This document shows positions 565-61,040 of a stretch of DNA of 64,000 nt, in pieces; position 1 is the first letter of the stretch, and every line of letters begins with the position of its first letter. The stretch comes from Schmidtea polychroa. Its lineage: Eukaryota. A program made the translations under genes and the position numbers. The notes below the pieces were generated by a model. The model was given only the letters and a program-made list of their open reading frames with translations. It made no database searches and was not told the DNA's origin. Location: assembly GCA_044892525.1 (NCBI GenBank), contig CM097885.1, positions 11,968,001 through 12,032,000 on the forward strand, in the 5' to 3' direction.

Positions 565-3159
565 CAGGGATGGCAAATAGGTTTTTATCAAAGTGCCAAA
601 ATAAACTAAATTTAAATTCAATTTTTTTCGCGTGCCCTCGTAACTTTTATTTGTTATATGTACCTATATATATATTTTTTATTCATTTTTTTATTCATAT
701 TTTTATTCACAAGAAAACAGAAATAAATTTCAATATTTGAGTTCATGTGATAATATTTATTCAATATAAAGAAATAGTAAAAAAAATTATAAAGTTTAAT
801 AATAAATTTAATAAAAAATTCTTAAATTTTGTTAGAAGTTTTTTGCTTCATATTACTTGCAAGGTTTTTAATATCAGGATGGTATGTTGTCGATTGTAAG
901 GTAATACAAGCTGCTGAGTCTTCTTCTGTTAATCTGTTTCTTGTCTTTGATAGTACATGATTAAGTACAGAAAAAAGACTCTCACAGTAATAAGTGGATG
1001 CGAAAATGGTTAACATTGCGATTGCTAATTTTTTTACAGAAGCAAATGCTTCTGGCATACTATTCCACACTTCCAATATCAAGTTTTCAATGCGGCATTC
1101 CGACTCTCCATCCTGTGACAATCGATGATATTCCAATTCTTCTATATTTTTTCGCATATTCACAAATTTTTGTGTCCAAATAGGATTAGATTGCAAATCT
1201 ACTGTCTGCATTTCTAAATTTTCTAATTTCATCCAATTAATAAGGTTGTTATCGAAATCCTGTATATCGAATAAGTCCGGATAATTTACAATTTTCAACA
1301 GCCTATCAATTCTTTTAAAATCTTTAAATCGATTTGAAAATTGTTCTTTTATAGTTTCAAGAACTTTAGAAAATTCGTAATTAAAATTCCAATTAGTTTT
1401 TTTGAAAATTGTAGATTCATTTAAAAAACTTTTAAGTTTCGGAAAATTATTATGTTTTCCAGATGCGATATCTCTAGCAAAAATATCTAATTTAATTTCA
1501 AACCCCTTTATCAATCCAAACATAACTTCAATTGTTTTTCCTCGTCCTTGCAATTTTTTATTAAGAACGTTTAAATGTAATGTTACGTCGGTAAAAAACA
1601 TTAATTTTGTTAACCATTCTGTATCATATAATTCTTTAAAACGATCCCTGTCGAATTCGTGTAAAAAAAGTCGAATTTCTTCCAAGCAATTCACAAATCG
1701 TTCTAAGGATGTCGCTCGACTTAGCCAACGTACACTATTGCACATTAAGAGAGTATCGTATTCGCAATCCATATCATTTAAAAGTTTTTTAAATTGTCTT
1801 TTATGCATGTCGCGTGCAACTACAAAATTTATGATTTTATTAACTTGTTCTGATATTTCTTTGAAATCGCTAGTTCCGAATTTTGCACAAAGAACTTGCT
1901 GATGAATAATGCAATGAAAGCCTATTATTGGATGACCAACTAGGTTTTGAAATAAATTAACAAAACCTATCTCTGGTCCAGTCATATTAGGAGCTCCATC
2001 TGTCGTTACAGAAATGATTTTTTTAATATTTATTTTAAGTTTGTTTAATTCATTGAATACAACTTCACAAATATCACTACCTCTTGTTCTTTCTGGGATA
2101 TTTGCTAATTTTAAAAGTTCTTCGTGCATTTCATTATCTTTCGGATAACGTGCAATGATTGCTAATCGAGGAGATGACTTAATATCTGTTGATTCATCGA
2201 GGCAAATTGAAATGTAGTCACAGCTATTAACATCGTTGTAAAGTTGATCAGAAATATTCGCACTTATTTTTAAAATTCTATCTTTAACTGAATTTCGGCT
2301 TAGCTGGACTTCTCGAATTCTTTGAATAATCTTTTCTTTATTATTAAAATCTTGAAACAAACTTTCGGCCGCTTTTAACATAACCGTTTTTACAAACTCT
2401 CCATCAGAAAATGGTTTTGATTGCTTAGCAATCAAATAAGAAATTTCAAAACTAGCTTCTGTAACATTGCTGTTGGTTTTTACAAATTTTGATAATGAAT
2501 TCGATTGATTTTCAGCTATCTTTAATCGTTGAGAAATTAGTTCTTTTCTTTCTTCAATATTTTTTTCGGCAATTTCTTTATGGTTGGTTTCAAATGTCGC
2601 TTAATAGAAGACGTTCGACATACAATAATTTCAGAGCACAGACCGCACCGACTTTTATCTCCATGTTTAACAAAACCGTAATCAGCAGTCCAAGAGAGTA
2701 CAAAGCTACGAATATCTTGTAGTTTTGGTTTTTTTGGTACCATTTTAATTCAGCAAAAAATAAATTTTATTTAAAATTAAACACAAATTTTATTGAACTG
2801 CACAAGTTAAAACAAAACTAAAAACTGATGTAAGAATATACAAGAATTATAACACAACCATATACGTATGTACAAAATAACCGTTATTTTGGCAAATAGG
2901 TTTTTATCAAAGTGCCAAAATAAACTAAATTTAATAATTAATTGCGTTATTTAATAACGCAAAGCCAACTAGAGAAAAAAATATAGAATTCAATTCAAAG
3001 CCGTTGATTAAAATTTTGGGTCCAAATTTTTTTTTAAAAAGCAGTAATTATTTTATAATAAGAATTTTTTCTACTTCTTTTTTTGAATTTCTTAGAGTGC
3101 CAGAAGTTTTTTGTCTGCGTGCCAAGTTTGGCACGCGTGCCATGTAATTGCCATCCCTG
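565..3159 (-). mobile_element. hAT DNA transposon (Buster/SPIN/Charlie-type), full length
   Basis: 12-bp perfect TIRs CAGGGATGGCAA (565-576) / TTGCCATCCCTG (3148-3159). Perfect 8-bp TSD CTCTAGGG (557-564, 3160-3167). Encloses a hAT transposase gene. Confidence 0.96.
822..2743 (-). pseudogene. hAT transposase (GTF2IRD2/SPIN-like), about 640 aa, one frameshift near 2592
   Basis: ORF 2743-2537 gives a BED-finger-like start (CGLC...KRH). Restoring one T (CAT TTT GAA) continues RHFETNHKE... without stops into ORF 2435-822. That ORF has LDESTD, TTDGAP, HCIIHQ, VRWLS and the dimerisation motif STYYCESLFS. Confidence 0.9.
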
Positions 3160-4254: not shown

Positions 4255-7200
4255 TATAAATAAAAAGCGTGTGTACTCAGGGATCAGTATTGGACGGAAA
4301 GAAAGTATTTGTTTGAATGTTTAGGCTTCTTTAATGGAAAAATTACGTTTTTAACTCTACAACTACTTTTTTTATTTATCAACTAAGAGTACTTTTTAAA
4401 TTACTTAATTTATTTTAATTAATTACCACAAATTTGTAACTCAATTTAAGCACTAAGCAGTTATATAAAGCACATATACATTTAAGTACATATAAGTATA
4501 AAAAATACATACTAAGCCGAATATTTTTCATTTTACCACTCAACCACAAATATGCAAAGTAACCCGTTACCTCCGGGTGCTCCTTTATATGGGCGAACTC
4601 GAATAACCCATAATAATTACATAATAATAAAACTATATCTAACGTTTTTCTATTATTTCTAACTATATCTGTTCATAATTTATTTTTATTCTTATAAACT
4701 CCCCAAAACATTTTTTTACGCAGCGAAGAATATTTTGTAATAATTGCGTAATTGACTCCACCCACTTATTTTTTATTTTTTAAACCTTTTTATTCTTATT
4801 TCTTTTAATATGTCTTATTAAATAATTATCAAATTTCTGAAAAACAATTCGGTAGTTAACGAGTTAATTGTAGTAATAGTTGTAATGTAATTCTTGTGTC
4901 AAGGGTTGTTATCTGCTATATTAAATAGTTTATTATTTGTTTTAATTAACCACTGTTATCTTTGTTATTTATATAAGATCAAGTTGAAATTCTGAAAGCC
5001 TTAACATATCTTCTGAAAATAAGATTCATGAACAAGTACACTTTATAATTATTATTATTTTAGATAAAGTTGTAAATAAGGCACCAAATAAAGTTTTTAC
5101 GTGATAAATGAGCTAAATTGTTTTAATCGTTTTAAAAATTTAAAATTTATTTAAAACTTTATTACAATTAGAGTAGTTTAGTTGCATTTGTATAAATTAT
5201 ACAAAAAAATATCAAAGTTTTATTTATTTTAAATTTGAAAACAAATTACAAACTTTTCATAAATTGCTTTTTAGTAATCTTTTGTCAAAATATGAAATAT
5301 AGACTTTTCATATTTTTTTCTTTCTCCATAACTAACAAATTGTGGGAATTAGAACTGGCATTACTGACTTCCCCATAATACGTAATAGAGTCTCTTGAGA
5401 GTTTCAATTGCGATGTGCTCAAGTTTATTTTTTTTAAAAAATCTTTCCACTTTAGCATTGTTATTAGCCAATTGTTTGTAAAATATTTTTCCAGCTATAA
5501 ACAAATTAATTTCATAAAAATAAGTCAACAATATTCGTTTGTTTTATTTATTATTATTTGAAATGGTTTTTGACTGTTTTAGATTTGACATTTTCACTTT
5601 GAAATAAAATGTTCAAAATTGCATTATTTTCCTTTCCAAATCCTTTTTCAAAAAGACGGTTTAAGTAATGAAATTGTCAACGCATTAATTACAGTGTTTA
5701 AATTTCAACCTTTAATTTTGTTCACTCTTGTTTTTTTTCGACATTTTTTATTATTAATTTTAAATTTATAGTGACAATAAAAAATTCGATTTAAAAAAAT
5801 GATAAGAAATAATTAAAAAAAATAAAATTTAATGTTATAATAAATGAAACAAATCGTATTTTATTAAATTGTAGTTATTAAATAAAATTAAATATATATT
5901 AGAATTTTTTAAAAAATTAGAAATAATATAAAAATTTTTTTTCTAAAATTTAAAATTTAAATTTAAAGAATTAATATGATAATTTCTAATTATTTATCAA
6001 TTATAAATTCTATCAGTTATTTCTGATTATTACAATAACTTGATTTGGCAAATATTTAGATATTTATTTGATATTGCTTATTTATGTTTATAAGTTTGCT
6101 AAACTAATTAATATTAATTAATTTTAAATTAATTAATTCGAATTAATTTTGAAAATTTTAAAAATATTTATGAAAACAAATCATTCACAAACACAGAATA
6201 ACATGAATAAATTTGTGACCAGCCGGCAATGTTATAAGCTGATTTTAATCACAAAAGTAAAGAGATAATTAATTATTATAATAAGTAAATAAAGTAAAAT
6301 AATAGAGATAAATAAAGGTTATTCTATCTTTTTAATAAAACAATGGATACAAGTTATTAGATAAAATTAAAATAGACATATTAATTAAAATTATTACTTT
6401 TACATTTAATATTATTTTTAATAACTAATTAATTTTGTTAATTAAATGTTAAAAAATTAAAAATAAATAATTTGATGTTTAAAACAAAAAAAAACACGTC
6501 AATAATGAATTATGTTTTAGTTAAGTTTGAAATTATAAATATTAAAATCAAAAATGTACGTATATTTTTACAGTTTGTTTCTACAAAAGACATAAAATTT
6601 GGATATATTTAGTACTTTATATTTTATATCTTCGTGACGCTAAACTCAGAATTTTAATTAAAAAAATTCATCTAAGGTTTTAATTTTTTTTAAATGTCAT
6701 TTAAAGTAATGAAAAAAACAATCATCAGTAGCTTCGACAGTTTGTTAATTTTTATACTAAATAAATAAAAAAAATAAGATAAATAAAAAAACTTTTTACT
6801 ATTTTTTATATTTATTTAACAAACTGAAAAAAATGAAAAATGTAAGCATATCGCAAGAATGAAAACTGTTAAACAAATTGACGCAAAGCAATGGCTTATG
6901 TGCATAAATTACAAAATAAGTTTTGTTTAATTGTAAAAGGGCATTTTAAAAATTGAAAAAGGAAATAATTGAAAAATAATTGAAATAATTGAAAAAGGCA
7001 GTGCCGAAAATTCGTGAGTATCAAAAACATTGATATATTACTGATTTATATAAACATTTTATTGGTATTATTGTAATATTAGTTATACAAAAATAGTTCC
7101 AATTATTGAAAATATATTAAAATATAGTAAAATATGTCATTAAGATTTGGCTCAATGAGCAATGTAATTTTTGGGCATCTAAATATTTATCTACAGTCAA

Positions 7201-8205: not shown

Positions 8206-8343
8206 AATAGTAATTAAAAACTATATGTTAATTAATTAATAATGAAAAAATTATTGATAACAAAAAAATGAGTTTATAATTAATATTGTTTAAATTATAA
8301 TTTTTTGATTTTATTGAAAATTGATCAATTATATATTCTATAG

Positions 8344-10004: not shown

Positions 10005-11866
10005 ATTTATATTTATATTTATATTTATATATTTATAAAGGTAAATCATATTTTATTAGTAAAATAAAATCCAGAAAATAAAATGGAAAAATTTCAATTA
10101 AATACTTGAAATATTGAAGTAATTTCTTCACTTTTAAACAAATTGTTGACATGCATATAATTTTTACATCTAAAGTATTATATTATAAAATATTTTATTC
10201 GCAAATTATGAAAGAAAAATAAAAGTCGAGTCTCAATTTATCTCAATTTGTTTTAGTTTGACTTATCATGAAAATATACAGGAAATTATAAAAATTATTA
10301 ATTAGCAAAAAAGATTTTCCCTTAATTATTAATTCAATGCTTACTTTTCTGAAATATATTCTTTTAATTAAAAAACATTATTGCATAGAAGAAATGCTAA
10401 TAATAAAATGTTAACATCACATTTCTTATTGTTGGGTTTTAATAAATTTCGGTAGGTTCACAATTCAATCTGGCCCCAAGAGTATGGATGACGTCTCACA
10501 AATACCGGACATTTATCTTCGTGCTGTTTTTACATTAAATGTCAATGTCGTACCATTTTTTTGCTACCGACACTGATATTCACAAATTTAACATCCAGAT
10601 AAAATGGGAAATAATATTGTTATATAATTATATTATAAATTAAAAAATCACGTTATTAAACATCGTTACTTATAGTTAATCATTTGCACTACATGCCATG
10701 ATTGTGAATGTGAATTAGGAAATTTTGTAAATATTTGAGCACTGGAATGTGTTACATGTTGGTGTCATCTCAATTCTATGATTTACATCGACAATATTTC
10801 TTCATTTTTGTTAATTTATTCAAATTAATGGACGTAATTTCTTTACTATTATACATCTACTTGATTTGAGTTTTATATAATTTTCACTCAAATTTAATTA
10901 ATTCTATATTTAAATTACATTTTTACACTTCTTCACACTTTAACTAACTCTTTTTACTCTGCACACTTTTCAAAATCAACCTGAATCTTGCGTAGAGGTT
11001 AATCTTCAAACGTGAAATGTCCCATTCTGGTACGTTATATTCAAAATGACTAGGTTAGCACTAAGTTAAATTCACTTTTACTCTCTTTCCCTGTAAAATT
11101 ACTTTTCTTTCTTTGACCAACTGGCAATTCTTTTTAGTTGCCAGTTGCTTTAAGTAATTACCTGTCTAGTAATTTTATTATCTTCTTATCAATTTACTTT
11201 TGATACTTTCCTCCTGGCTTCCTCTTTCCGACTATTTATTTTTTGATAGTCAATCCTTATTTAATTACTCGTCGGTTAATTTTATTGCCTCTACCTAATT
11301 TGATTGACCACTTGGGTCCTCTTACACTGTTCGGGTTTTCAATTCGCTCAATTTTCCTATTAGCTAATTAATTTTTTAACTTTATTTTTATTATATTTGA
11401 CCTTTATTATATTATTATATTATATATTTATTATATTGTTCGACATCTGCCCATACCATTTCCTCCGGAATATATTCGCTTTTAATTTTTTTTAATTTTT
11501 AATTAATATTTTTGTACTTTAAATTAATACAGTGAATTTGATGTTTTTATTGATTTGCACCTTGTTTTTGTGCCTGTCTCGTCGAACCCCGAAATATTTG
11601 CTTTTCTGGCTCACTTAAAAATTAATTCAGTGATCAAAACCATTTTTTTGCTCTTATGAATCTTATGAATTAACTACAAGAAACAAACATTGACATCTTT
11701 CTGACTTAATTATAGATATTATAATAATTAAAACACAAATCAAAATCTTTTATTTTCAAAATAAAATAGAGTCAATTTTAATCACATACATTACTATGAA
11801 AAATATGAAAAGAAATTAAAACTTTATTTCACCTTTATAACTTGAATCATATTAAATTTTATTCAG

Positions 11867-12226
11867 TTCCACCGTCCCAACCTCTGATCTATGAAAACAA
11901 TAACAGACAACCAAGTTCGACAATTCTAATAACGATTTCGGCGAAAATGTACGACAATCATAATAAGAAGCTCAATCTAAAATGTGAATCCAAAGGAGGT
12001 CAACCAGATCCAACCTTTGAATGGTATCACAATTCTCAAATGTTGAAAGAACAGGAACTTTTAGTTAAAATAATCGATTACAAAACTCATAGTTTTTTGA
12101 CAATTAGTTTCACTCAATTAATGAATGGCGATTCAATAGCCTGTGCCGTTTCCAACAAGGCTACTTTACGGAACAGTCAAACAAGCCAAACCAAACTGAA
12201 AACAAGTGTGACAATAACCGTTAATA
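11867..12226 (+). CDS. Nephrin-like protein exon B (C2-type Ig domain)
   Basis: ttcAG acceptor, GTAAGT donor. VPPSQP...LKCESKGGQPDPTFEWY...IACAVSN...ITVN. Phase compatible with exon A. Confidence 0.9.
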
Positions 12227-12981
12227 GTAAGTAGTTGAACATTGTGCTTTATATTCATAATTATATTCAATATATTTCATTTATTTCTATTGCGATTATA
12301 GATCAATTTCTTTTTTCTTTATTTGTGTAACACAAGTTTTCAGCACTGTTTTTATTAAATGTTAATTAAAATATTTTATCATTTGTTTGTTTTGTTAGGA
12401 TTGTCTAGATTAATGATAGTATAAAATAGATTTTAAATGCACAGAAATGTAAAATTCCAAAAATAATAATTGAAATGGAAAAGATGATTAATAAATTAGA
12501 AAAGTTGATATTTTTCCAAGGACACGGATATGAGCAAAGGGCAAATGATGAAAAGAACACGAATATAGAGTAATATAAAAATGATTAAAAGCGGGTAGAC
12601 AAAGTTATTAAAGAAATACAGATTAATTAATTAATTAACTGTAATAAATTAAATAAATTAGATTAGAAGAAACTTTAAGCTTGACAGACAAAAGATCAAC
12701 CTATCAAGCAAATTAAATTGGTCCCGACTCCTTATAAGAGAATAATTTAATTAAAATGTAAAATGAGGCGAGAATTCCTATAAAAGAAGCTTTTGACTCA
12801 GGAAAACTAACATTTTGATCGATGAAAAAATAAGGGTGTTTTAAAAGTGAAGATAAAGTTTTAAAGCCGAGTCAGATTCGTTAAACTATTGTATTTGAGA
12901 CGGTGTCCCATATGAGTTGTATTGATTGAGTTCGAAAGATTGTAAACTGTTTTAATAGTAAAAGTTAAGAGGGATTTAATC

Positions 12982-13965
12982 ACTAATTTCACAATATAAA
13001 GTCTGTTATTGACAATATAAACAAATGCTTTGACAGTTAAACAAATCAATGACAGAATAAATACAATTTTTGACAAAAAAATATAACAACCTATTTAATC
13101 AACTATAAGTTCTTAATTAATACATCTTGGTATATAAGTCCACATATTTCTTAAATATACATCACAATCGATTGCAGTCACCAAAGTACTTCCATTAGCA
13201 ATATCATCCATATACTCTGTTTCATTCTGTGGATTGACCCTTTTTGTAATCTCCTTCCACTTGCTTAACATATTCTCAATAGGGCTGATAAAAGGCGAGT
13301 ACGGTGGTACTCATCAATGATAATGTTGACAACTTCTGGACTCCTGTGGAACTTTACATTATCCATAATATATAATGCTCGAAAAATTGCCTTATCAATT
13401 AAAATCTGCTTAAAATCATTAATATATTCAATAAATAACTTATTATTTATTGCGCGATTATGATACTTATAGAAAATTACACCACTTTTTTTCATGGCGC
13501 AAATTATCGATATATTACGTGATCAAATGTTTGGATCTTTTGAGTAGCCGGTGTTCCTATGCATGAGCGGCTCCGTGTTGTCGGAATTGAAACATTAAAT
13601 CCAACCTCATCAATAAATATGAGTTCTTCCTCGGAATAAAACTTAAAACGGAACTAAAATTAAGTGCGTAGTTGCTTCTTACGGAAATTACATCAGTAGA
13701 AATTCGTCTTTCGGGAATTAGATGAAGTCTTTTGAACGAATAGTGAAAGAAAGTTAATAAATTGTGAACATAAGTATTGGAAACCCGCACACCATATCGG
13801 TTGTCGGATGTGAAAGTTGTTCGCTTTCTTTATTTTCAACATTTGTGTCATTTAAAGAATTCTCCTAGATGTATTAATTGAGAAGTTATAGTAGATTAAA
13901 TAGCTTGTTATATATTTTTTTAATATTTTACATTGTCAAGGTATTAGTTTATATTGTCAAATTAG
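12982..13965 (-). mobile_element. Degenerate Tc1/IS630-like element with long imperfect TIRs
   Basis: Minus-strand fragments YSFKR..., IDEVGFN, NISIICAM, IMDNVKFH, YSPFISPIENM (DD..E motifs) broken by frameshifts. Inverted arms about 13009-13127 and 13867-13960 (e.g. AGATGTATTAATT.AGAA.TTATAGT.GATTAAATAG). Outer ends approximate. Confidence 0.8.
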
Positions 13966-18052: not shown

Positions 18053-18653
18053 TTATCATTTTTAAGTAACATTTCCACTGTCACTAACTATTGAATAAAT
18101 ATTCTAATGCCTTAAAATGACATTGACATCTGACGAAAATTTTACATTGTATAATAGGGTGGGTCGAAAATTTTTTTTTTCTCCAAACATGCCTAAAAAG
18201 TTGTGCTTATGCTAGAAAATGAAATATCCCTGCAAAAGACTGCTGTTTAAAAAGGTTTACAGGTCCCAACTTTTGTTTGTATGTATTAGTACTATCCCAG
18301 TAAAAATGCTCGCACACGTGCCATTGTAAATTCATCCTGCAAGCAGTCACACGCTTGCAGAAAGACCATTTTTGACATGCTCTATTCACAAGTCCAAGCT
18401 AACGCGTGCATGTATAGAGAGGTTAATTCACGGAAGCACCTTCACACAAGCACTCACAAAGACAATTTCTTCTGAACAATACTAACACACACACTACAGT
18501 CAACACATAATCCACATGGATACTACTAGTCAGTCTAAACTCAGATAATTTAATTTGTTTCGATTGGATGTCAAGTGTTTGCTGGACCTAATTAAAAAAG
18601 TAAACTTGATGATTCACTTTTATTTTGCCAGAGCTGAGTACAGAAGAGCAGTT

Positions 18654-21600
18654 ATGAAGGGACAGAGAAATAAGCAATTTCGCAAAACAAGAAGTAAATC
18701 ACGTCATTGTCTGTTTGGTCAAACTTGTGAACTACCCAGAAACCAATTACCTACTTGTGAAGATGTGTTTCGTGATTACTGTTACAATGAGAAATGTACG
18801 CAATTTCATACTGGCTTTAACGAACAAGCAACTCTTCTCGCAAAAAGGGTGAAGGAAATTTATATGAAGGCAAGTATCCCAACTGTTGAGTTCAGTAGTA
18901 TTGTGGTTCGTGTCAAGCGACTAATATCAAAAGTGCGTGAATTAGAGAAGTATCCAGAATGCAAGAGGTCATCTGCCAAATTTCAAGATAAGTTAAGCTC
19001 GTTTTCCAAATTGTTTGACATATGTTGCTGCAAATGTTTTAATGATGGTGCTCGTGGAAGAAGTCAGTGTACATGCCGATTGGCCTTGAAAATTCCTACC
19101 TTAGAGTGGGAGTTCTGGATTGACCAACAAACTACCAGAAACATGAAAATCGGAAATACGGACAGACAGGAAACCTCAAAATTGAAGAGAAAACAAACGA
19201 AAAGCAGCCCTACAGGAAAAGGAAAACAAATGAAAAATGAAATAATGGACACTGAAGTTAACGATCTACATCCGACCTCAAGAGGTGACACGGAGAGTGA
19301 AGCCGCTAGTGATGAAAGTAAAGATAAGTTAGACAATTCAACAGAAAGCTCAGAGTCAAGCGTAGAAGAATGTGATGAATTTCAAAATAGAATACATTAT
19401 CCTGAATTAAGTAAAGCTGTTGACAGATGTGGTGTGAGCAACAGAGACACGTGTTTGCTAGTAAACGCTTTTCTGAAAGATATGGAACTGTTATCCTCTC
19501 AAACAATCATCGATCCCGCAAAATTACGGCGTCAGAGAAAGTACTGGAGGGAGAGAGAAATTGAACAGCATTCAGCAGAAGCGAAAAACTTGATTTGCCT
19601 CGGTTTCGACGGGAAACAAGATTCCACCTTACTTCATAGAAGGATCCTAAAAGAGGAGCATTATGTGATTGTCGCCTTTCCAGGGGATACATATATCGAT
19701 CATGTTGTACCTCAAAGTAGTAAAGCTGTGGATATTGGCAAAGAAATCATGTCAATCATCGTTAGCACGCAGTCCTCACTGACCCTTCAAGCAATTGTGT
19801 GCGATGGAACCAATACAAACACCGGAAAAAATAATGGAATAATCAGAAGACTCGAAAAAAGCCTAGGGCGACCTCTACAATGGCTGATATGCTTGTAGTG
19901 AGCCGTTACACGGCCTTAACAATATCTATATACCTATTATACTATATTATATTATATTATATTATATATAAATGCGCGGTCACCAACGAATAAGGACCAA
20001 ACAGAACACAAGTATAGTCAATCAAAAGTCGTGCGATCAGCTAATACTTCTACTTATCAATCAGGCTCTATTAATCAATCTCAGACGAGTAAAGCAAATT
20101 CGATGCCATGTTATCATTATCAAGATAAACTGTATTCGGCTCCCAATAGTTTTAGTTTTGGCTTTCATAGACCAACACCCTCATCCATTACAATTCGCGA
20201 AATACGGAACAAATCCTAACAATAATATGAACCCGAAAAGATCTTTTTATCAAACCACCACACGTCTTTACAAATTCTGATCAAGGTGATAATGCAAAAA
20301 AGGATCAGAACGGCAAAGGATATACATTTCCTCAAATATTGTATGCGAATGACAATGGTCAAAATGGTTCATGGACAAATCGGCAGGCTGTAAAATCTTT
20401 AGAAATAATCGGACTATATGAAATTATTATTTTTAGTTAACATTTTGTAAATGAGAAATGCCTGTTGAATATGTTTACCTGGTCTGATTATATTTACATT
20501 TTTTATGTAGTTTCTATTATATATATATTTTTGTTTTACTCAGATCTGTAAATTTTTGTAATTCAAATTAAAAACCTTGTAATTAAAATTAAAAATATCT
20601 TTACCTGCAATTTGACTTATTCATCAGAATATTTTTATGAGTAAAATAAACGATATGCAAAAACCTCAATTGGGTTGTTTTTCGCTAGCTAAAAATTCTT
20701 ATTGTTATTCCAAAGATTCATTCGAATGCATGGATTCTCTAAAATATCTCAATGTAGAGAGCTTTGGAAATGATAACTTGCATTTTGCTGCATTATTAAT
20801 AAATGGTCATAATTGCCGAATTATAGTAGATAAATTATGTAAAAAAATTAAAGTCGAATTCGATGGAAGAAATTTTACGTCACTCACGGATTCCGATTCT
20901 ATAATGAATTATATTGGAAATGTTTTAGAGAAAATCGAACAAAATTTCTTCAATGCAATGTCTAATTTATTCAAGAACAAATCAGATCTTTTGCAAACCT
21001 GTAACTTAAAATTTGAAGTTGAACAAGGTAAAATATTAATTGAAATAGACAAAATAGATGATCAATTGAAAAGTGGGGCAACTATTGCCAAATTACCAGA
21101 AAGGACTACGCCAACCACAACAATGCTTGTTGCATGCAAATGAATTGCCATTCAGGAAGTATTTTTCAGTCGTCGATGGTGGAGAAACAAAAGGTCCAAA
21201 AACGTCATGTGGTGAAATAGGAAGCGTTCTTGATTTTGATCCAAAAGACAAGCCCGTAAGAGCCTTTATGTCCCTTCCTGGAAAGGTCGTAGATATTAGT
21301 GAAAATGTCAAGAAAGAATTGAACACTGATCAATTGTATTTCCTCAGAGTATGCTTGGCAGTCCAGAAAGGGTACCACAACAACAAGGATGTCCCTTTTC
21401 TACAAATGGCACAACCAGGAAATTTGAATCACAGTCGCTGGCTAACGAAAGCTAATAGAATTCTGCGACTATATATGTCCGAAACTGCTCCATCTGAACC
21501 TCTCATGCGAATAGTGAAATTTATTGTCAATTTCTATGGACCGTCATGGTTTTATATAAAGACTCACTCGTCATGCCAAGATGGTGCAAGAAATATTTTT

Positions 21601-22113
21601 TATATGCTCCAACTTCTGCAGGATTTGGATCCATCAGACCAAGAAATCATCTTTCCTGTCATTCAGAACAACAATTACTTCTCACATCCAGAAAATATAC
21701 TCCTAGCTGCTGTTGGTGATGATGATGAAGAAATCAGAAAGTTTGCAACAGAAAAAATCATAACTGCAAGACAAAATTTTCTCCCTTCCGAAGTGATTCG
21801 CACTATGGACAAGAATACTGTCTTTCTTCAGTCGTCTGCTACATCATATGTTGACATGATTGACTGGACAAAATGTAATTTGACGCCTCCTCCTCTTTTA
21901 TCTCATATATTGGATCATGAATTGAAGATGAATAAGAAAATTACATTAGAACAATTTCCCTGTCATTCTCAAGCCGTTGAAAGAGCCATCAAAGATGTTT
22001 CTTCTGCCAGTTGCAAAGTGTTTGGTCACAAGTCCAGACATGGTATGGTACTACTGTGTAAAAAATCAAGGAAGGAATTGCCCAAGGTGCAAAGCAAAGC
22101 TGATTTCATGTGA
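18654..22113 (+). pseudogene. hATm-like transposase (about 741 aa when rejoined), interrupted at 19894-21122
   Basis: Joining 18654-19893 to 21128-22113 gives one open frame (LQWLIC-LLHANEL). Motifs: GFDG, CDGTNTNTG, CxxH, HSRW, HSQAVERAIK. Confidence 0.9.
19894..21122. mobile_element. TG..CA-bounded insertion (solo-LTR-like), 1229 bp
   Basis: Starts TGTAGTG and ends CACAACA (6/7 inverted match). Flanked by ATGCT direct repeats (19889-93, 21123-27). Removal restores the transposase frame. Confidence 0.8.
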
Positions 22114-23149: not shown

Positions 23150-23150
<1 letters not shown>

Positions 23151-23243
<93 letters not shown>

Positions 23244-23346
23244 ATTATTATAATTATTATTATAATTATTATAATTATTATAATTATTATAATTATTATA
23301 ATTATAATTATTATAACTATAATTATTATTATAATTATTATTATTA
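23151..23346. repeat. (ATT)n / (ATTATTATA)n microsatellite
   Basis: Direct reading. Confidence 0.97.
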
Positions 23347-23404
23347 TCAGCAAGTGATGTAATTTTCAGTGCACCATGGAAAGTATGCAATAAAGCTGAA
23401 CTGC

Positions 23405-23446
23405 GTAGTACTGATGAGAGCCAAAAGCTCGAAACTAGTCTACTGT
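23405..23446 (+). ncRNA. Minimal type I hammerhead ribozyme, copy 1
   Basis: GTAGTA | CTGATGA | GAGC-CAAAA-GCTC | GAAA | C-TA-G TC | TACTGT. Complete catalytic core, 4-bp stem II, palindromic ACTAGT stem III region, GUC cleavage triplet, stem I with G-U pairs. Confidence 0.88.
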
Positions 23447-23504
23447 TGTGATTTGCACTGGGTATCACAAAGCTTGTGCTGTTTATATTATATAATTATT
23501 AATA

Positions 23505-23594
<90 letters not shown>

Positions 23595-24446
23595 GTATTA
23601 TTAGTATTATTAATAATAATGATTTCTTAGTAGCGGCAATTGTAAAAGATTTATAAGAAAAGGGTAAGCTTTTATCAAAGATTTCCTCATTTAATGTAAT
23701 ATTTATTTAGATTTATTTTATCATTCACTTGTTTAATTATTATTTTTTTGTATTTGTATTATTTATAAAAAATATATAATATCACTTAAAATTATATTAA
23801 ACTCATTAGAAAAATACTTTGTGATGTATACTAAAACAAAATGCAATCTTCTATTAAATTTAATAATGTTTCAGTAGACAAACTATTTCGATTCTCATTC
23901 AATATGTTCACAATTAAATGACGAAAACGTTCTCTTTTTTACGCCCTAATTTCAATTTTTAAAATTAAAATAAATTATTATTCGAAAGAATTAAGTTAAA
24001 AAATAAAATAAAATAAACTATCTTTTTAGCAAATAATTTAAATAAAGGAAGTGCTGAACATTAATTTTTGTTCTTTTTGTCATAATGGAAATAAATTAAA
24101 AATCATTTGTCTATAGTTTTAACTTCAACATTTATGTCTATCTCATTTCCAAATATCTACATGTTCTGAGTTTAAGATAAAGTTCATTGGACATCAAATA
24201 TAAGACATAGCAAATGGTACATAGAAGTGAACTGTTGAATACAGACACAAAACCAACCCCCTCCAATTAAAAAGATAAATATAATTTTGCGTTTTTATGA
24301 CAGTCTGTATCATGAACTACTGAAAAATCAAATTATAAAAAAATAAATATTATATTATAGATTTATTAGCAATTTTTCTCACAATATTACCTTAAATTCA
24401 GTTTTTATATAAAGGAAAATTAAAAAAAACTTTACTATTCATTTAA

Positions 24447-32959: not shown

Positions 32960-33126
32960 AGTTTATTAAAAAGAGAGCTTGAAGACTACAAATCAGTAAT
33001 ATATCATTGTTTTTAATACTCACGATTTTTTGGCACTGCCTTTTTCAAGTGAACTTGATTCGTGAGTATCAAAAAACATCGATATATTACTGATTTATAG
33101 TCTTCAAGCTCTCTTTTTAATAAACT
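32960..33126. repeat. Foldback copy of a short dispersed repeat
   Basis: AGTTTATTAAAAAGAGAGCTTGAAGACTA.AAATCAGTAATATATC... followed by its reverse complement. Related copies at about 6990, 39130, 53420, 56250 and 62138. Confidence 0.85.
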
Positions 33127-34582
33127 CAATGGAAAAAATAATCAGTGGTGAAATTGGAAAAAAATGTTCTTATAATTAAATAAAGTAATTATGTAATCTT
33201 ATTGTGATCAGTTGTGATCTTATTATTATTAATTAATCGTTAGTTTTTTGTCGGTTGGTTGAAGTGATGTTGTTATAGATTATGTTAGTTTTATGAATTG
33301 TTTTTACGACTATTTTGTAATTTGGTATATGAGAAAAATCTTTAGAGCCCGACAGCATCTCCAGTAAAAATATGTGGCGGGACAGTCAAGATGCCTGTAT
33401 GTATTGCGTTTTACAACGCAAGTGATAATAATGTCAAAATAATATCAATAAATAGAACTAATAGATTATGTTTCCAACTTTCATTAAATAAAACAAAAAA
33501 ACCTTGGTTAGGAATTTTCAGTAATGGTTTGGCTGATATATATATAATATAATTACTTTCGTATAATTCGTAATTATCGTTTTCCCTTCTTCTATTTAAT
33601 AATTCAGGGTAGAATTCTTCAGTTAAATACACTAAAGTCCGACGATATAACTGTTTGCGGTTTGCCTCGTAAGGTCGTTGAATAACAAAGCAAACCAAAT
33701 AAAGTCTATTTGAATCTTCTAAACTTACTTAAATGTTCTTTTACAATGTCTTCTGCTTTTCTGCTGGATCCTTAGATTTTAATTTATTAGAATAATTTTC
33801 ACGGGAAAAATTACTTTAATCCGTTGACTATAATTTTTTAATTTATTCTTCCTGATTGATTTTTTTTCAAATTTTTTAATTTTTATCAATTTGTCATTTT
33901 ACTATATAGTTTTTTAAACATTTCATTTCCCAAAACACTACGGGAACGAAAATGATAGTAATAAAACACCTAATTGAGGTTTTGTTTTAACCCATAAAAA
34001 CAATAAAAATATAACATTCCACTACAAAAGTGTTGCGTTTAACTGATTAAATATTAATTGTTTGGGATTGTAATTTAATCACCAAAGCCTCCAACAATAT
34101 GTTTTCTCAATAATTATCAAAGTTTTATACACAATTTGAAAATTATTTAATTAATTTTAATTCATTTATTAAATCATAACTATTGCATCAATATTGGTTT
34201 CCTTATGTAATACTTTACAATAATTAATATATCAAACTGATATCAATAATCCGTTCCTTGAAATATATTTCGATTATTTTGCATTTTTGTTTATTTAAAT
34301 AAATATGACGTAAGTATTTATTTTCTTTGTTTGAATTAAAAATAATTCCTTTTTAAAGTTTTCATAATATTGCCATGATCAGGTTCTTAGCCTTAAAAAG
34401 ATTAATAATTTAATTAAAATATTTATGACGTTTCATATGATGAAGTATAAATTTAATAAAATAAATAAATAAATTTAAAAAAATTGCTAAAAATAGAAAT
34501 CATTAATATTAAAAATACGTTATTTGAGATTATTTAAATAAACAATAAAACCAAGTGAACTAATCAACTAAAACAAGAAAAT

Positions 34583-35834: not shown

Positions 35835-35882
<48 letters not shown>

Positions 35883-36072
35883 CATTTTTTAAGTTGTAAT
35901 GGTGTAAATGATTTTTCACACGCCATGTTTACAAGTTTGCAGATATTTCTTCTGTGATTTACTAACTTTCAAGTGATGTGATTTCCAGTGTTCCAGGGAA
36001 AGTATACAATAGAGTTGATTCAGCGATATTGTATACTTACCAGGTGCGAAGAGAAATCTTTGCGTCTCCTGC

Positions 36073-36114
36073 ATAGTACTGACGAGAGCCAAAAGCTCGA
36101 AACTAGTCTACTAT
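36073..36114 (+). ncRNA. Minimal type I hammerhead ribozyme, copy 2
   Basis: ATAGTA | CTGACGA | GAGC-CAAAA-GCTC | GAAA | C-TA-G TC | TACTAT. Perfect 6-bp stem I and complete core. Confidence 0.9.
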
Positions 36115-36150
36115 TGGGATTTGTACTGGGGTATCACAAAGCTTGTAATG

Positions 36151-36231
<81 letters not shown>

Positions 36232-37896: not shown

Positions 37897-38286
37897 ATGT
37901 CCAGCTACAAAGCCACTGGGATCAGTTTTGAATAATAACGGTTTGTCCATTTCAATATCATAAGATTATGCTATCATTGAACAACCTAATGGTCGCATTT
38001 CAGCCGATTGGGTGTAAAGCTGATTAATATCCGCAATACAACGACATATTAAGTCACAAGGCATTTCATATCCATTTTTATATTTAAATCGAGCTGCTTC
38101 CATTTGTGCACGACATACTTGAGATCGACAATCAGGGATCATACCAGTCATAAAACCTCCAGTACTTTCAGTAATATTAAAAAATCTTGTAGCTGAACTC
38201 TTCTCAATCATTTTATCTGGAACTTTTCTTTGTGTAGCTACTACACCACAATTATTGCCTCGAATACCAACGGAAAGCAATCCACC
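37897..38286 (-). pseudogene. PSMA6: Intronless fragment of proteasome subunit alpha type-6
   Basis: [23 protein letters not shown]...[54 protein letters not shown] matches alpha-6. In-frame TAA at 37966-68, then similarity continues (LFKTDPSGFVAGH). Both termini of the subunit are missing. Confidence 0.88.
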
Positions 38287-39080: not shown

Positions 39081-40205
39081 AGTTCCAAGAAACACATGTT
39101 CAAGCCAGAAATTTATAACAATGATGCTTAAAAGGCAATGCCGAAAATTCGTAAATATCTAAAACATCGATATATTTACTGATTTATAGTCTTCAAGCTT
39201 TTTAATAAATATATTATTATTATTATTATTATTTGTCTCCAAGCTTCTGTTGATACTAAACCTTGACACTGAAAAATATGTAAAAACGAAAAGTTTCTTT
39301 CTTCATAATTTCCTGAAAATGTTTGGTGTGCCGCGAAAATTTTACGATTTACTTACAATTTTACCACAATCCAAAAAAGGTTGAGAAATAATGATCTATC
39401 CTCTTCCGTATATATATACTATAATCAAAAATGGTAATAGTACAACAAAGGACATTCCGATCTCCATTTTTGTTTGTACGAAGAGCGGTTCTCTCGCCAA
39501 AGGGAAAATTATCACTATTTTCTATCGTTTCGTCATATACTTGGAATCCTATGAAATATCCAATAACTGTATATGTAATATCCCATTTTTTGAATCTCCC
39601 TTTAATTGGTTTTATCTACATGCATTGCTTTAGTAATATTCTTCCTTTGAATGTCTCCACGCTTAATGAATGCGGAAAATGAAGCTGGACATATTTTTTT
39701 CGAAAAGATTAACATTGGTCATATTTTAAAGAGTCTATCATAGTTATTATATAGCCTCCTAGTTAGCATATAATTATTTTACTTAAGTATAAAAATTGTA
39801 ATACACGTAAGGATCAAATTATACTAGGTATGTAATTTAATTTAATTAATAATCAATTTAAAATTCAATATTCAAATATCTATTATTATAGACAATATTT
39901 AAACAGAAGATTATTTTATTCCAAGAAAACATCAAACACTTTTTCTACATACATTCTGTTATTTTAGATAACAGATTTATATTATAATTATTTTTATATT
40001 TAAACTGTTAATATATTATTCACAATTATTATTTACATATAAATATTTTGCAATAACGCACGACACGAGTTTCAAAATGTTGCATATATTGACCACAGTC
40101 TACATATGTCATATAATAAGTACATAAAGATCATTCGAGATGGAAATAAAGAAAGAAAATGAGCTTTATTTGTGATGGCATAAATATTTGCCTCTTCCTA
40201 TAAAG

Positions 40206-50916: not shown

Positions 50917-51435
50917 TTTACAAAATAATAGCAATAATAATAAAAATATAGAACCATTTAACAAATCATCAATTAATTAAAAATTTGTAATTATAATTTA
51001 GTAAATTATTAAGTAATTTTGATTGATATCGAAAGGCTACCAAAGATATTTTATTTTTTTTATCATTCGTTTTGATTGAAAAACGAAAATAAATATGGTC
51101 AATCTGTGAGTAATAGGAATTTTCTAATGAAATAAATTCTAATATTTCAATTTGGTTTATTTTATTAAAAAATAATAATACAGTTTGAGATATTGATCGA
51201 AGAAGATTACATTTTAAAAGATAAAGAAATTACTTTTTGATTAAAGAATTTGTTTTCAAATTATTTGTGATTGCTAACAAATATATTTTCTGAAGGTTTG
51301 GTCATACATACATTTGAAATTGGATTTGTAATATATATTGTCGAAATATTAAAATACGTTTGTAAAACTGGTGGATAGATGTTGATTAATGAACAAAATA
51401 TAAGAATACATGCCATATATACAATTCAGTCTTAC

Positions 51436-51479
51436 ATGGTATCGAAGAGAGCCAAATAATCTCAAAACTAGTATACTAT
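51436..51479 (+). pseudogene. Decayed copy of the hammerhead element
   Basis: ATGGTA TCGAAGA GAGC CAAATAA TCTC AAAA C TA GTA TACTAT followed by ..ATTGCACTG. Stem I can still pair, but the core is mutated. Confidence 0.65.
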
Positions 51480-51626
51480 TAGAAATTGCACTGAATATTG
51501 AAAACTATTTTTAAAAGATTTTAATTTAATTTCCAAATATTTATTAGTGAGTCGACCAATTGCATATCTGCAGAAAATAAAGGAAGGACAACTGAAAATA
51601 ATATACACGATAATTATTAAATAATA

Positions 51627-52201
51627 CTCCCTCCGTCCGGAAATATGGTATACATTTGAGCGATTTTTGTTGTCCGGAAATATGGTATACATTTGCGAAA
51701 AAATAAAATAAATCAAAAAATGTACATGACAAGTTTATTATATTACCTTTATTTGAAACATTTTAATAAATATTAATGTAAATATTAAATAAAATTTAAA
51801 AAAATAAATATTAATATTAATAAGTTCACTCGAAATTTGATTTGGCTTTATTGTATGCTTCTTTAGAACAAACATATTTTTCTAGCAGTCGACCTTCGCG
51901 ACGAAGTTTTCCTTTACTTAAATGATATATTTTGAATCTCTTCTTTCTAAATTTAACAAATTTCCTTCCACATTTTCCATATTCGTCTTGCAGCGGTACT
52001 AATTTTATCTACCTCAAGAAACACTGATGTTTGAGCGGTAAGTTTTTAACTAAGAATGATATTACTTAAGTCAAATATTTTAGGTTATATTGTCATGAAT
52101 ATTTACTATGACAATGTCATGACAGTTGCCTATTTATTTTTATATTCACGATAATCTACGATTTTTGTTGAAATGTATACCATATTACCGGACGGAGGGA
52201 G
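51627..52201. mobile_element. Mariner-type MITE with Stowaway-like termini (575 bp)
   Basis: 31-bp TIRs CTCCCTCCGTCCGG.AATATGGTATACATTT (30/31), TA TSD. Confidence 0.93.
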
Positions 52202-55200
52202 TATAAATTTAATATAAACTTATTTTTAAAAATATTTACAATTCAATTCTAGCATTTCACAACTTATTTAACATACAAAACATACTAAAAATTATATTCA
52301 TAATTTAATTAAGTCAACAATAAAAGTGTGAAAATTAGATTTGTAAATAATTTAATTATAAAAAAATATATAATTAATTATACTGATTAATTTGTAGTTT
52401 AGAAAACAAATTGTCTATTATTACATCGAATAGATATAATTTGAGGATTAATAAAATTGCAAATTTAATTGTTTTTTTTTAATTGAAAGAACTTTTCGTT
52501 GATCAACATAAAAAGAAATTTATGATTATTATCAAATAAAATTATATAAAATTAATGAATGTAATGATTTAGAATTTGACTTTGAAATTTAAACAATCAC
52601 TCTTTTTTTGTTTTTAAATAAAACTTCACAATCATAAAAATGCACAATTCTATTAAAACAAATCTTAAAATAAATTTACTTTTTAATCTTCAAGATGATG
52701 CGGTAATTTAATACTATTTTCTTGTTAATTCATCTCTGACTTCAATGCATTTAATTATAAAATTTTATTTACATTTTTTAAAGTAATATTTTTAAGTAAC
52801 TGACAGTTTGCCGGACGAGTTTTGCATTTATTAATTATTATACCTAATTAAATCTATTATTAGTAATAATTATATTAATAATTAAGTAATAGTAATTGGA
52901 TATTTCATAAATGTGTTTCAATGTAAAAATACTCAATGTATTTTGTTATTTTCGTTAAAATTAAACATTATTTGGAAATGTAATAAACAATTTCAGTAAA
53001 CTCTCTCAATAGGGTACATCCTTTTGGCGCTTAGAATTATGTAAAAGGTAATCTATAGAGAGATGTGCCATATATAGTATGTACTGAATGAGGTACACGT
53101 TTTGCATATATATATATATATATATATTAAATTTTTAAAGAATTGTTATGCAATTTTGAACTGCAATGGACTCATTGACAGATTCCCTTGTTTCATGTCT
53201 TATATGTTGAAGTCTAAAGAGTTTTAACATTTGTAGTGGATTCCATTAATAAATCTATAAAGAAATTCCAACAAGAAAATCATCTTTAATTTAAGCACAC
53301 GAATAAAATTAATAAAGCCTACACCAAAAAGTGATGAGAAAAATGCCATTGCATACACAATATGAAAGGGCACACAGATATAAGCATAACAATTTACATT
53401 GTATTTTTCATAAAAAAAATGCAGTACCGAAAATTCGTGAATATCAAAAAAACATCGATATATTTATTGATTCATAGTCAAGCTTCTTAACACATCTGAT
53501 TGGATCTGATTGCTCCGGCCTGTTTGTACGATTTGATATTTTCCATCAATTATATAATAAATTGTATAAATCGAAGTCTTAATATTTGTGTAAATTTCGA
53601 TAAAGCCAAACTTGAATAAATTTTTGTTTAAAATTTCTATTTCTATTCTGATTGATTGTACTACGAAATCTAGATTTTGTCGGTTCTCTTAAAATAAGAA
53701 AATTCGTGTTCAGCTGGATTTTAATCAAGCTTCTCTTTTGGAATTTTTTATTATTCATATTTAGTTTATAAAATCGTTGTAGAGTTAGTAACTTAATAAA
53801 CCGGTTTCGAGAGTTTTATTAACTAAATTTAAATAAATGAGACACATTTAAACAACATAATTCTAATTTTAGGATATATATATATATATAAGAAATAAAA
53901 TAAAAACAATAAGAACAAAAAAAACAATTGAATATATATTTAACAATACTTGTGGACAAAGCTTTACAAATGACTATTTCCCAATATTAACTGAATGTTT
54001 TTTCACGAAACTTTAAAACCACTTTTTATTAAAGAATTAGAACTAATTTCTTATCATGAATTGAAAGTTTATCTAATCTGTAATTATTATCAACGCTGCT
54101 AGTTTATTATAATTTACCATAAACTATTCTGATTGTTTTATCAATTGGTAAAAACTTAAAAAATAATAAAAAAATTAATTTAGAAAATATTATGGCATTT
54201 CAGTCATCTTTTTAAATTAATTTCATGAATTATTTTATTTTAAAAATAGTAATAATAAAATTTTAATGAAAAAAACAACAATAAATATTTCTTGAAATTT
54301 ATTTTGTCTTTGGATGAAAATTGATAGAAAATGTAAAATGATAACCACTCCAATGCTGTTGGGAATGCAATTTTGTCTTGGTTTCATTTTCCTGAAACGC
54401 TTCTTGATTAAATTATGATAAATGTATAAATATTACCCCATTTCAGATATTTTCTCTCGGTTTAACATAACTTTATATTCCATGAATTTATGTGCATGAA
54501 TTATTCAAGAAATAATAAATACCTAATGATTTAATTTGATGATTCTTTTTAATGATTCTTTTTCCTTAATTAATATTTATAAGTTGTAATAGAAGATACC
54601 AGGTCTTTTGATTTCAGAGAAATCACTTTTAATTACAACAAAAAATAAATTCACATCATTAAAACAAAATATTAATTAATTTAAATAAATAATTAAAAAT
54701 CACTTCATTCAAACGACAAAATAAAACAAAATAAATAATAACTTCATTTAAACAAATAATTAAATTAAAAAATATTTTTTAATCCCGAAAATTTCAAGTC
54801 AAATAACCAATGCCGCATAATGTTTTTACTTGTCAAAACTGATAATTTAAGATGATATTGGTATGTCTTAATTAAAGTTGTAAGAACTTTAAATGGATTT
54901 GTCAAAGACAGTGTTACCAACTTTACTGACTTTTTTATATTGCTTTATCAGATTGTGGATATCAATACTCAGGAAATTTATGGTGAAAACAATTGGTAAT
55001 TTATGTAAATCTTTAAATTTTAAATTAAAATCTTATTCACAATTGAGTACATTCCTAAAAAATACAATTGACAATAAATAAAGTTATTAGTTATAAAAGT
55101 TTGTATTTATGTCATCAAATTTATTAAGAATAAAAGATTTGTTGAGAATTTAATTAATTTTTTAAATGTAGAATAAAGGTTCTAGCAACTGAATATATTT

Positions 55201-55409: not shown

Positions 55410-57121
55410 CATCATTATTATCATCATTATATTTATTAAAAATCAATAAAGAAATAAAAAAAACATCGATATCTTTACTCATTCATAGTCAATTTTTTAA
55501 AAATATATCAATTAAAAAGAAATCAGAGGTGATTATTATTTCTAAATATAATTGTCATAATCAATATTATTATTTTACTCCTTTTATAAAAATTAATATA
55601 AAACCTAATAAGATGTTTAAAAAATCTAATAATATAAAAATTTTGTCAACAAATTCAATCATAATTTGTCAAATTTGTCTGAAAAATAATGTAAATTGTC
55701 TCATTGAAATGAGGAAACTAGCGTAGAACACAATTTTAATACATGAATATATAAATACTATTTATTACTACAAAAAGCTCATTTTATCACATATATTTTA
55801 TCACTAACAAATCTGAAAAATATTGAATTTATGTGACAATTGAATTTTTATAACTTTACGAATATATTTTTTATATTAAATAGTATTTAAAATTAAAATT
55901 AAACTTCAATATTTTATATTCTTTTTTATTTTAGTTATTAATTCCGTTTGCCAAGCTTTGTCCCTGAAAATGAATAGTTGAATTACCGATTTATTGTTAA
56001 TTTTTTGTTTAAATTTATAAATATAAGTCGAGAGACCTGAAAAAGTTGTAAAATATCAAAATATATAAATGAGATATTATTTCATTACTAAATATTTGCT
56101 AAAAAAGTGACACGCATTATAATTATGATTTTAGTTTGTTTTAAAATCATAAATATTAATAATTATTATTAATATAAATTAATATAAACTATTTCAAGCG
56201 CTATAAGAACTTTTTTCCAATTTCACCACTGATTATTTCTTCCATTGAATTTATTAAAAAGAGAGTTTGAAGACTATAAATCAGCAATATATTTTGTTTT
56301 TTGATACTCACGAATTTGATATATTATTGATTTATAGTCTTCAAGCTCTCTTTTTAATATTTCAAGCGCTATTTATAAATATTATAAAAAATTTGCAAAT
56401 AATTTAATTCAACCGGAAGCTTTGAACGATTCAGTAAAAGATGAATAAAGTTTCCTATTCAATGGAATTTTTTTGATAATGAAAGTACAAATTAATTTTA
56501 TTTATTATTATTTAACTCTAAAATTTAGAAGAATAATTAAATAAGTGATTCCTAAGTTCTGGGTTACCAATGATTTTTGTTATGTTCAAGAAATGTTTGA
56601 TATTCAAAAATAAATTAAAAATTTTGCATAGAAACATAACATTTGATTTTATTTGCACTAGTCAACGCTGTAGCTCACTAAATCTATGAAATGTATGTCA
56701 TCACTGTGTCATCAAATGTATGACATCACTACTTTTGTGCAATCAATGATGCCAATATTTTTGGAAATAAAATTTACGTAAAATTATATCAATTGGTTGG
56801 TCAACAAGAAAGACTAAAAATGATGCAAATTCTAAAACTATAATTACTGATAGAAATGATTATCAACGTTCAATACAGAACAACAACATTGATAACGATA
56901 CTCATGTGCAAGGAAATTTGGATAATCATTATAACACTTATTTCAATGACAAAAGCAAGAATGCTACACCAATGAATATGATTACAGATAACAGAGAAGT
57001 CGGATTTAAAGGCACCCAAAGTTTTTTTTCATATAGCATTGATAAATCATAGTGGTCAATGGAAACATGATACCTCTAGTTCATAAAAAAACATCGAAAT
57101 AGACAACCAAATCAGAGTAAT

Positions 57122-60200: not shown

Positions 60201-61040
60201 AATAACAGAAAGAGTTGATCGTTGAAACAAAAAGCCTCTTGGCAATACTTTTAATAATTGTATATCTTTTTCTGAAAGCAGTTTTTTTCTCATTAATTTT
60301 TCACTCACTTATTTATAATTGAATAAAAGTTACTGAAAGGCAGTATTTATTCGCGTTTTTATTATAAAATACCGATAAAATAATATTTTCATTTTTTAAA
60401 ATTAAAATTTTATAATTTGCAAAATTGAAACAATTTTTTATTTTATAATTAATGTCGTTCAAAAATGTTTAATTAAATTATATTTCCCGTTTAAGAAATA
60501 ATTTAAAAACATTTGGTAGTTTGCCAAAATGATCAAAAATAACTTTTGAGTAGTTATCAATAAATTCTTTATTGTTAAACTATATATTAACTTCACTTTG
60601 TATGTATGTTTAAATGTTAAAATTAATTAAATAATTCGATTTATTACTAAAGTATCAAAATCACTTTAAATGAAACAAATTAAATTTTTTTATTAATAAT
60701 GCTATTATTTTTTTTATCATTTACTATTCTAGTGATACATTTTATTCGATAACACTTATAATTAAAACAAATTGATTTCTAAATAATATTTATCCAATCA
60801 AATTCAAATGATATCTTAAGCAATATCATCATTCAATTTCAACATACAACAGAAACCCGAATATTTATAAATAGATTTTGCAACATTTTATCAAACTGTA
60901 TGTACATTCTGTAAATACAAGGCTGAAAAAAGTCAATCTTGCATATTTCTTAATGTACCCAATAATTAATTTATTTACTTAAAATAGTAACTAGTTTTGA
61001 ATAAAAAGTATTTTTTTAATATTCTGCACTTAATTTTAAG

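Follow-up and report, generated by a model that had tools for sequence, protein, structure and literature searches.

We consider the repeat at positions 23350-23490 (copy 1) to be, with reasonable probability, a damaged copy of a high-copy, non-autonomous retroelement of the retrozyme type known from animals, which Penelope-like enzymes likely inserted. It lies in a 64,000-nucleotide (nt) stretch of AT-rich eukaryotic DNA, here called the window. Copy 1 carries a hammerhead motif, belongs to an abundant family with a predicted multi-hairpin fold, is flanked by microsatellites and has been damaged. The window contains three copies, two of them with a hammerhead:

23350..23490, plus strand: copy 1, a 5'-truncated, internally deleted monomer (alignment; 3' end from the family loose end)
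35884..36157, plus strand: copy 2, the longest in the window, about 274 nt (contig coverage and predicted fold)
51435..51493, plus strand: copy 3, a decayed remnant with a broken catalytic core (blastn, 78% over 59 nt, E 1.9e-7)
23405..23446, plus strand: type I hammerhead of copy 1 (sequence, descriptor scan, Rfam HH9)
36073..36114, plus strand: type I hammerhead of copy 2, with helix I fully paired (Rfam RF00163, descriptor)

Both hammerheads have the CUGANGA, GAAA and UH elements and three helices with helix I open, and both have the palindrome ACUAGU as helix III and GUC as the cleavage triplet. In both, helix I has 6 bp and helix II has 4 bp with a 5-nt loop; in copy 1, two of the helix I pairs are G-U and the core reads CUGAUGA/GAAA. 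Cleavage is predicted, by hammerhead numbering, after C23440 in copy 1 and after C36108 in copy 2. The full type I descriptor hit exactly these two sites in the window and none in 60 block-shuffled windows. In Rfam, copy 2 matched RF00163 with 29.3 bits (E 1.9e-5), under the gathering score of 34, and copy 1 was listed for HH9 at 18.7 bits (E 0.027); across the whole window no match reached a gathering score. As a sequence motif, we regard the hammerhead at 23405-23446 as real. With 6 bp in helix I, 4 bp in helix II and a helix III that is short and palindromic, it has the canonical type I geometry defined in PMC4209133. The exact hammerhead patterns had no matches in viral contigs, metagenome contigs or prokaryote genomes. 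A C/D snoRNA was rejected, its Rfam scores of 13-14 bits being at chance level. A coding frame from the ATG within CUGAUGA of copy 1 was also rejected: it enters the microsatellite, the corresponding triplet of copy 2 is ACG, and coding support was lacking.

Abundance was assessed by comparing contigs from 4 of 24 public runs, from organisms A, B and C and with no possible RNA run of organism A among them, with region 35882-36152 at 80% likeness. In run X1 (organism A), 6,148 contigs matched and covered all 28 bins of this region. Summed depth in X1 reached up to 4.1 million, compared with 125-436 for single contigs, a roughly 15,000-fold difference that gives an order of magnitude only and no copy number; the family comprises roughly 10^4 copies. 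Depth dropped towards the 5' end. Family contig coverage sets the element length at at least 270 nt, and there may be a longer parent element. Copy 2 (at least 274 nt) represents a non-coding, many-copy unit in the range of about 150-450 nt with a GC content below 50%, and has stops in all three forward frames upstream of the ribozyme. A related family was detected in organism B (463 and 74 contigs) and organism C (84 contigs); the RNA origin of the 74 contigs of X13 and the 84 of X18 is a guess, and their counts are not taken as expression. Coverage of these relatives was best over the hammerhead, loop 2 was changed, and the cleavage triplet was mostly GUA. Hammerhead rules tolerate changes in loop 2 and from GUC to GUA.

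The initial annotation had described 23351-23477 as homologous to about 35970-36147 with a deletion of about 50 nt, and the alignment of copies 1 and 2 bears this out: the two differ in 15 of 128 aligned columns, 11 times by a transition, and the gaps are one of 49 nt (36019-36067, absent in copy 1) and one of 1 nt. It had also placed the end of both copies at ...AAGCTTGT, which is wrong. Copy 1 continues for about 13 bases that match the loose end of the family, a loose end seen beyond ...AAGCTTGT in 88 contigs of X1, and its end was moved to near 23490. Copy 1 lacks the 5' 86 nt of the family and is classified as 5'-truncated because family contigs cover 35884-35969 too. The parts of the predicted folds are as follows:

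23351..23373, plus strand: closing stem of copy 1, 5' arm (predicted fold)
23454..23477, plus strand: closing stem of copy 1, 3' arm (predicted fold)
23399..23400, plus strand: junction of the 49-nt deletion (alignment against the copy 2 fold)
35993..36064, plus strand: long hairpin (about 35993-36044) and GAAA-tetraloop hairpin (36045-36064) of copy 2 (predicted fold)

In the predicted folds of both copies the terminal arms pair, in agreement with the partly complementary ends noted before. The rod-like RNA proposed from them was not recovered; in copy 2, the closing stem instead surrounds three arms, namely the long hairpin, the GAAA-loop hairpin and the ribozyme. The predicted fold is strong for the whole 274 nt of copy 2 (z -5.43, matched by 0 of 200 shuffles) and for its region homologous to copy 1 (z -6.37, 0 of 200). 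From the apex of the long hairpin onwards, the deletion in copy 1 takes out the 3' arm of this hairpin together with the GAAA-loop hairpin. The predicted fold of copy 1 is at chance level (z -1.33, 25 of 200 shuffles as good), and its active ribozyme fold is predicted to cost 8.1 kcal/mol compared with 2.5 kcal/mol in copy 2; by these predictions copy 2 pairs stably with itself and leaves its ribozyme free, and copy 1 does neither. The exact 49-nt deletion was absent among the 15 contig joints listed (of 24) in X1. Each of these 15 was a single contig at single-copy depth, indicating that private deletions are common.

According to the initial annotation, the ribozyme differs between the copies at the tolerant core position N7 (T23415 and C36083) and by two A/G changes in helix I that leave G-U pairs in copy 1, and these differences were found as claimed. 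All three are changes that a hammerhead tolerates (P 0.015-0.046, with classification post hoc), a slight point in favour of copy 1 having a selected lineage as its ancestor. The number of changes in the ribozyme (3 of 42 positions) did not differ significantly from that in the rest (12 of 86; Fisher p 0.21). The two G-U changes weaken the predicted motif of copy 1 from -6.1 to -3.4 kcal/mol, i.e., by 2.7 kcal/mol in helix I. At N7, T accounts for 99.6% of depth in X1, and the C of copy 2 is the rare letter. Places with A>G at 5% or more in X1 were only 35995 and 36006, and the helix I G's of copy 1 stayed under 5%; the one at 36073, close to the alignment end, could be under-counted, and the one at 36113 should not be. 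With p at 0.21, rare and weakening G-U changes, and two conserved hairpins destroyed, the case for selection on the ribozyme in the short copy, as originally argued, is weak. Copy 1 is likely a decayed, dead monomer rather than a selected minimal form, because no partner ribozyme lies nearby, two hairpins are lost and rare changes have gathered in it.

Copy 3 shows the random decay that had been named beforehand as refuting such selection. Its core is altered at C3, U4 and G12, in hammerhead numbering, and it does not qualify as a type I hammerhead. We rejected the idea that copy 3 is a second short form, since its upstream likeness was not significant against random 60-mers of the window (P 0.06 to 0.95 depending on the query; 0.12 when anchored). 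At a distance of 120 nt past copy 3, a MITE-like element of about 600 nt with 43-nt terminal inverted repeats was noted (51615-52214).

Conservation of the fold was judged from 23 of the 40 variant rows listed (of 84), scored against the predicted fold of copy 2. The majority letters of organism A at 35992, 36042, 36045 and 36061 turn mismatches or wobbles of copy 2 into Watson-Crick pairs, and the one at 36006 turns a pair into G-U. Letters of organism B create additional pairs at 36025, 36026 and 36070. The variant C35993G (29% in X1) breaks a pair of the copy 2 fold, and T36060G together with T36061A in organism B break two pairs unless their partners change too. The X7 loose end, with an agreement of only 0.52, suggests that these partners change as well. 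By the 23 scored variant rows, the predicted family fold looks conserved. Copy 2 itself departs from the family in its 5' part: 33 X1 contigs diverge upstream of 35908 and 33 behind 35961.

Copies 1 and 2 are embedded in simple repeats, detected by an array scan:

23150..23347: (ATT)n array to the left of copy 1
23486..23612: (ATT)n array to the right of copy 1, in the same orientation as the left one
35835-35881 and 36153-36229: (TA)n arrays around copy 2

Such arrays make up 3.9% of the window, so that finding 2 of 3 copies inside them has a P of about 0.004. The microsatellites might have grown from AT-rich ends after insertion. The two copies with intact cores and the loose ends combine 5' truncation, a fixed 3' end after the hammerhead and an AT-rich or microsatellite target. 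None of the 149 stop-to-stop frames of at least 55 aa that passed the complexity filter in the 64-kb window belonged to a reverse transcriptase (RT) or GIY-YIG family, as the initial annotation had stated for the neighborhood, and within the window no RT plus GIY-YIG open reading frame (ORF) accompanies the copies, as it would the pLTR of an autonomous Penelope-like element. No tandem arrangement was seen among the 3 copies of the window, and the 15 joints listed (of 24) in X1 included 1 backward joint, in a search where junctions could be concealed by the shortness of the contigs and by gaps in the reference. Each of the eight X7 pieces listed (contigs of 842-5,382 nt) contained one match. 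Circular permutation was rejected: just TA repeats are common to the 5' start of copy 2 and the 3' tails of the two copies with intact cores.

Coding segments for immunoglobulin (Ig) domains were found on the plus strand at 8325, 11809, 30642 and 46439. They probably form one long cell-adhesion gene with large introns; given these positions and this strand, each of the three copies of the hammerhead repeat probably lies in an intron, in sense orientation. A fifth Ig-like frame without a Pfam match lies at 60991, and the set spans 8325-61371 on the plus strand. For the Ig exon at 11866-12228, no homologues were found at E 1e-8. Nested antisense between the Ig-domain segments is a proteasome alpha-6 segment (37897-38283, minus strand), whose three best matches are cestode proteins with 66-69% identity. 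These matches identify the host as a flatworm, and together with base composition they suggest a planarian. The segment corresponds to just residues 36-164 of its relatives, tblastn found no other alpha-6 parts in the window, and it could be a gene fragment or pseudogene. At 18549-22113, two long plus-strand ORFs of 449 and 347 aa lie about 1.2 kb apart with a third frame of 175 aa between them; the 449-aa and 347-aa ORFs look like halves of one DNA-transposase-like gene, an impression without a Pfam match. The ORF at 21070-22110 matched just unnamed eukaryotic clusters in Atlas and no RT or GIY-YIG family. Other mobile elements include a frame of 592 aa that is intact and encodes a hAT dimerisation domain (822-2600, minus strand) and inverted repeats (13075-13919) that flank a DDE_3 transposase fragment (13268-13522). 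Another family of short repeats, dispersed and in part palindromic, has at least six copies in the window:

32962-33174, 39130-39214, 53416-53490, 56202-56359, 62123-62249 and 6989-7050: copies of the second repeat family

The initial annotation had guessed a non-autonomous retrozyme or a Penelope pLTR-derived family, and this guess fits a published kind of element (PMC7229834; 10.64898/2026.07.22.740005). According to PMC7229834, non-LTR retrozymes are tandem units of 170-400 nt with canonical type I hammerheads, their hosts include platyhelminths, and their suggested partners are Penelope-like elements (PLEs). A further study ties retrozymes to pLTRs and describes dispersed monomers (10.64898/2026.07.22.740005); canonical hammerheads and the minimal ones of PLEs are kept apart in PMC4209133, and the retrozyme life cycle and flatworm PLEs are treated in PMC7761336 and PMC6515669. 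The family resembles metazoan non-LTR retrozymes in its canonical type I hammerhead with a weak palindromic helix III, its non-coding, low-GC unit of about 270-290 nt, its strong self-pairing, thousands of copies and platyhelminth hosts; dispersed monomers are known in Xenopus. It differs in that tandem units and circular RNA mark the retrozymes, whereas the copies of the window are monomers, and in that both copies with an intact core lie inside microsatellites. Like a Penelope pLTR plus tail, it has a hammerhead just ahead of a shared 3' end, 5' ends that vary, and ATT/TA targets. Unlike a pLTR it has no linked RT/GIY-YIG ORF in the window, its ribozyme is canonical rather than minimal as in a Schmidtea PLE, and the tail past the cut site measures about 50 nt compared with about 85-92 nt in an anole element (subtracted from positions in PMC11167929). 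Sm-alpha and Sj-alpha are likewise flatworm elements with tens of thousands of copies and the 6/4/short helix geometry, and copy 2 matches RF00163 at 29.3 bits, below the gathering score; their sequence is different, and no tRNA-related head was detected here. The family likely belongs to the non-LTR retrozyme or Sm-alpha-like class and is likely mobilised by a Penelope-like element. We found no literature description of this hammerhead family, which may be catalogued in Repbase or Dfam; the element class is already known and the family apparently undescribed.

The copies could also stem from an autonomous PLE, as 5'-truncated pieces of its 3' end (pLTR plus tail), with no separate non-autonomous family, a reading that we hold to be unlikely. 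It would account for the common 3' end soon after the hammerhead with varying 5' ends (23350 and 35884), the microsatellite flanks and the depth decreasing towards the 5' end, and it agrees with the mostly 5'-truncated PLE insertions of PMC8557442 and with Xenopus retrozymes matching pLTRs (10.64898/2026.07.22.740005). The stops in all forward frames of copy 2 and the lack of RT or GIY-YIG matches among the 149 frames of the window speak against it. So does the Schmidtea PLE hammerhead in the supplement of PMC4209133, which is minimal (3-bp helix I, 5-bp helix II, an extra base and no helix III), unlike the canonical one here; some PLEs carry canonical hammerheads, so geometry is not decisive. 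Mobilisation by a LINE of a Pol III-transcribed, tRNA-derived SINE with a hammerhead would suit the flatworm host and the dispersed monomers at very high copy, and Sm-alpha is such a tRNA-related, SINE-like element with >38,000 hammerhead matches (PMC2770079). We give this origin little credence: ARAGORN finds no tRNA gene, region 35860-36170 has no match to tRNA, 5S or 7SL up to E 10 (a head that has diverged, or that belongs to a missing 5' end, could escape these searches), and there is no poly(A) tail; target duplications are unreadable inside the arrays.

Equally improbable is a minimal subfamily that propagates in the short form and is under selection for its ribozyme and closing stem. 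The core of copy 1 is intact and its three ribozyme changes are of the tolerated kind (P 0.015-0.046 as above), it starts at the base of the closing stem, the deletion spares stem and ribozyme, and copy 3 can be aligned as though it carried a similar deletion. Against this reading, the exact deletion was not among the 15 joints listed (of 24), and the two A>G places at 5% or more in X1 (35995 and 36006) both lie elsewhere; moreover, the fold of copy 1 is at chance level and the short form of copy 3 was not significant (P 0.06-0.12). Exaptation as an intronic ribozyme that regulates the host immunoglobulin-domain gene is the most improbable of these readings. All three copies are on the plus strand between plus-strand Ig-domain segments, and exapted intronic type I hammerheads have been described in amniotes (PMC6155905). 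Three of three copies in sense is nevertheless expected by chance in 1 of 8 cases, the core of one copy is dead, the repeat family has a high copy number, and that the Ig segments form a single gene is itself a supposition.

For the preferred reading, a non-autonomous retrozyme-type element inserted by Penelope-like enzymes, the following route may be envisaged. An intact source copy would be transcribed by read-through. Two hammerheads would pair via the ACUAGU palindrome and then cut; the predicted gain of such a dimer is 5.4 kcal/mol over two monomers, and among predicted retrozyme dimers cleavage was reported in 1 of 9 tested (10.64898/2026.07.22.740005). The resulting RNA might remain linear or be closed to a circle by a host RtcB-type ligase, and a Penelope-like RT/GIY-YIG protein would bind it. 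The endonuclease would nick ATT/TA repeats, and reverse transcription would begin about 50 nt downstream of the cleavage site, a start that would lead to a common 3' end and variable 5' truncation. We infer the Penelope-like insertion step because an anole Penelope-like protein cuts 5'-ATT-3' and starts reverse transcription downstream of its hammerhead (PMC11167929), and because PLEs have a bias for microsatellites and insert mostly 5'-truncated (PMC8557442).

A more far-reaching consequence, which we hold to be very improbable, is that dispersed sense copies within one pre-mRNA pair via the ACUAGU palindrome and are cut as a dimer, freeing host-exon RNA. If this were true, cutting after 23440 and 36108 would yield an RNA of 12.67 kb that holds the Ig-domain exon at about 30.66-31.0 kb, and a host RtcB ligase could close the ends of this RNA. 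The approximately 10^4 copies would then be a genome-wide source of ribozyme-made host-exon circles, and host sequence could be captured in a Penelope-driven way.

The copies analysed here belong to a very abundant family of hammerhead retroelements that is apparently undescribed; at least three organisms share it, and its host lineage is a flatworm one of the free-living type. Should the host prove to be a planarian, RNAi and plentiful RNA data would make the family a handy test system. Two questions could be addressed with it: are animal retrozymes mobilised in trans by Penelope-like enzymes, and do they need a circular intermediate where monomers make up most of the copies?
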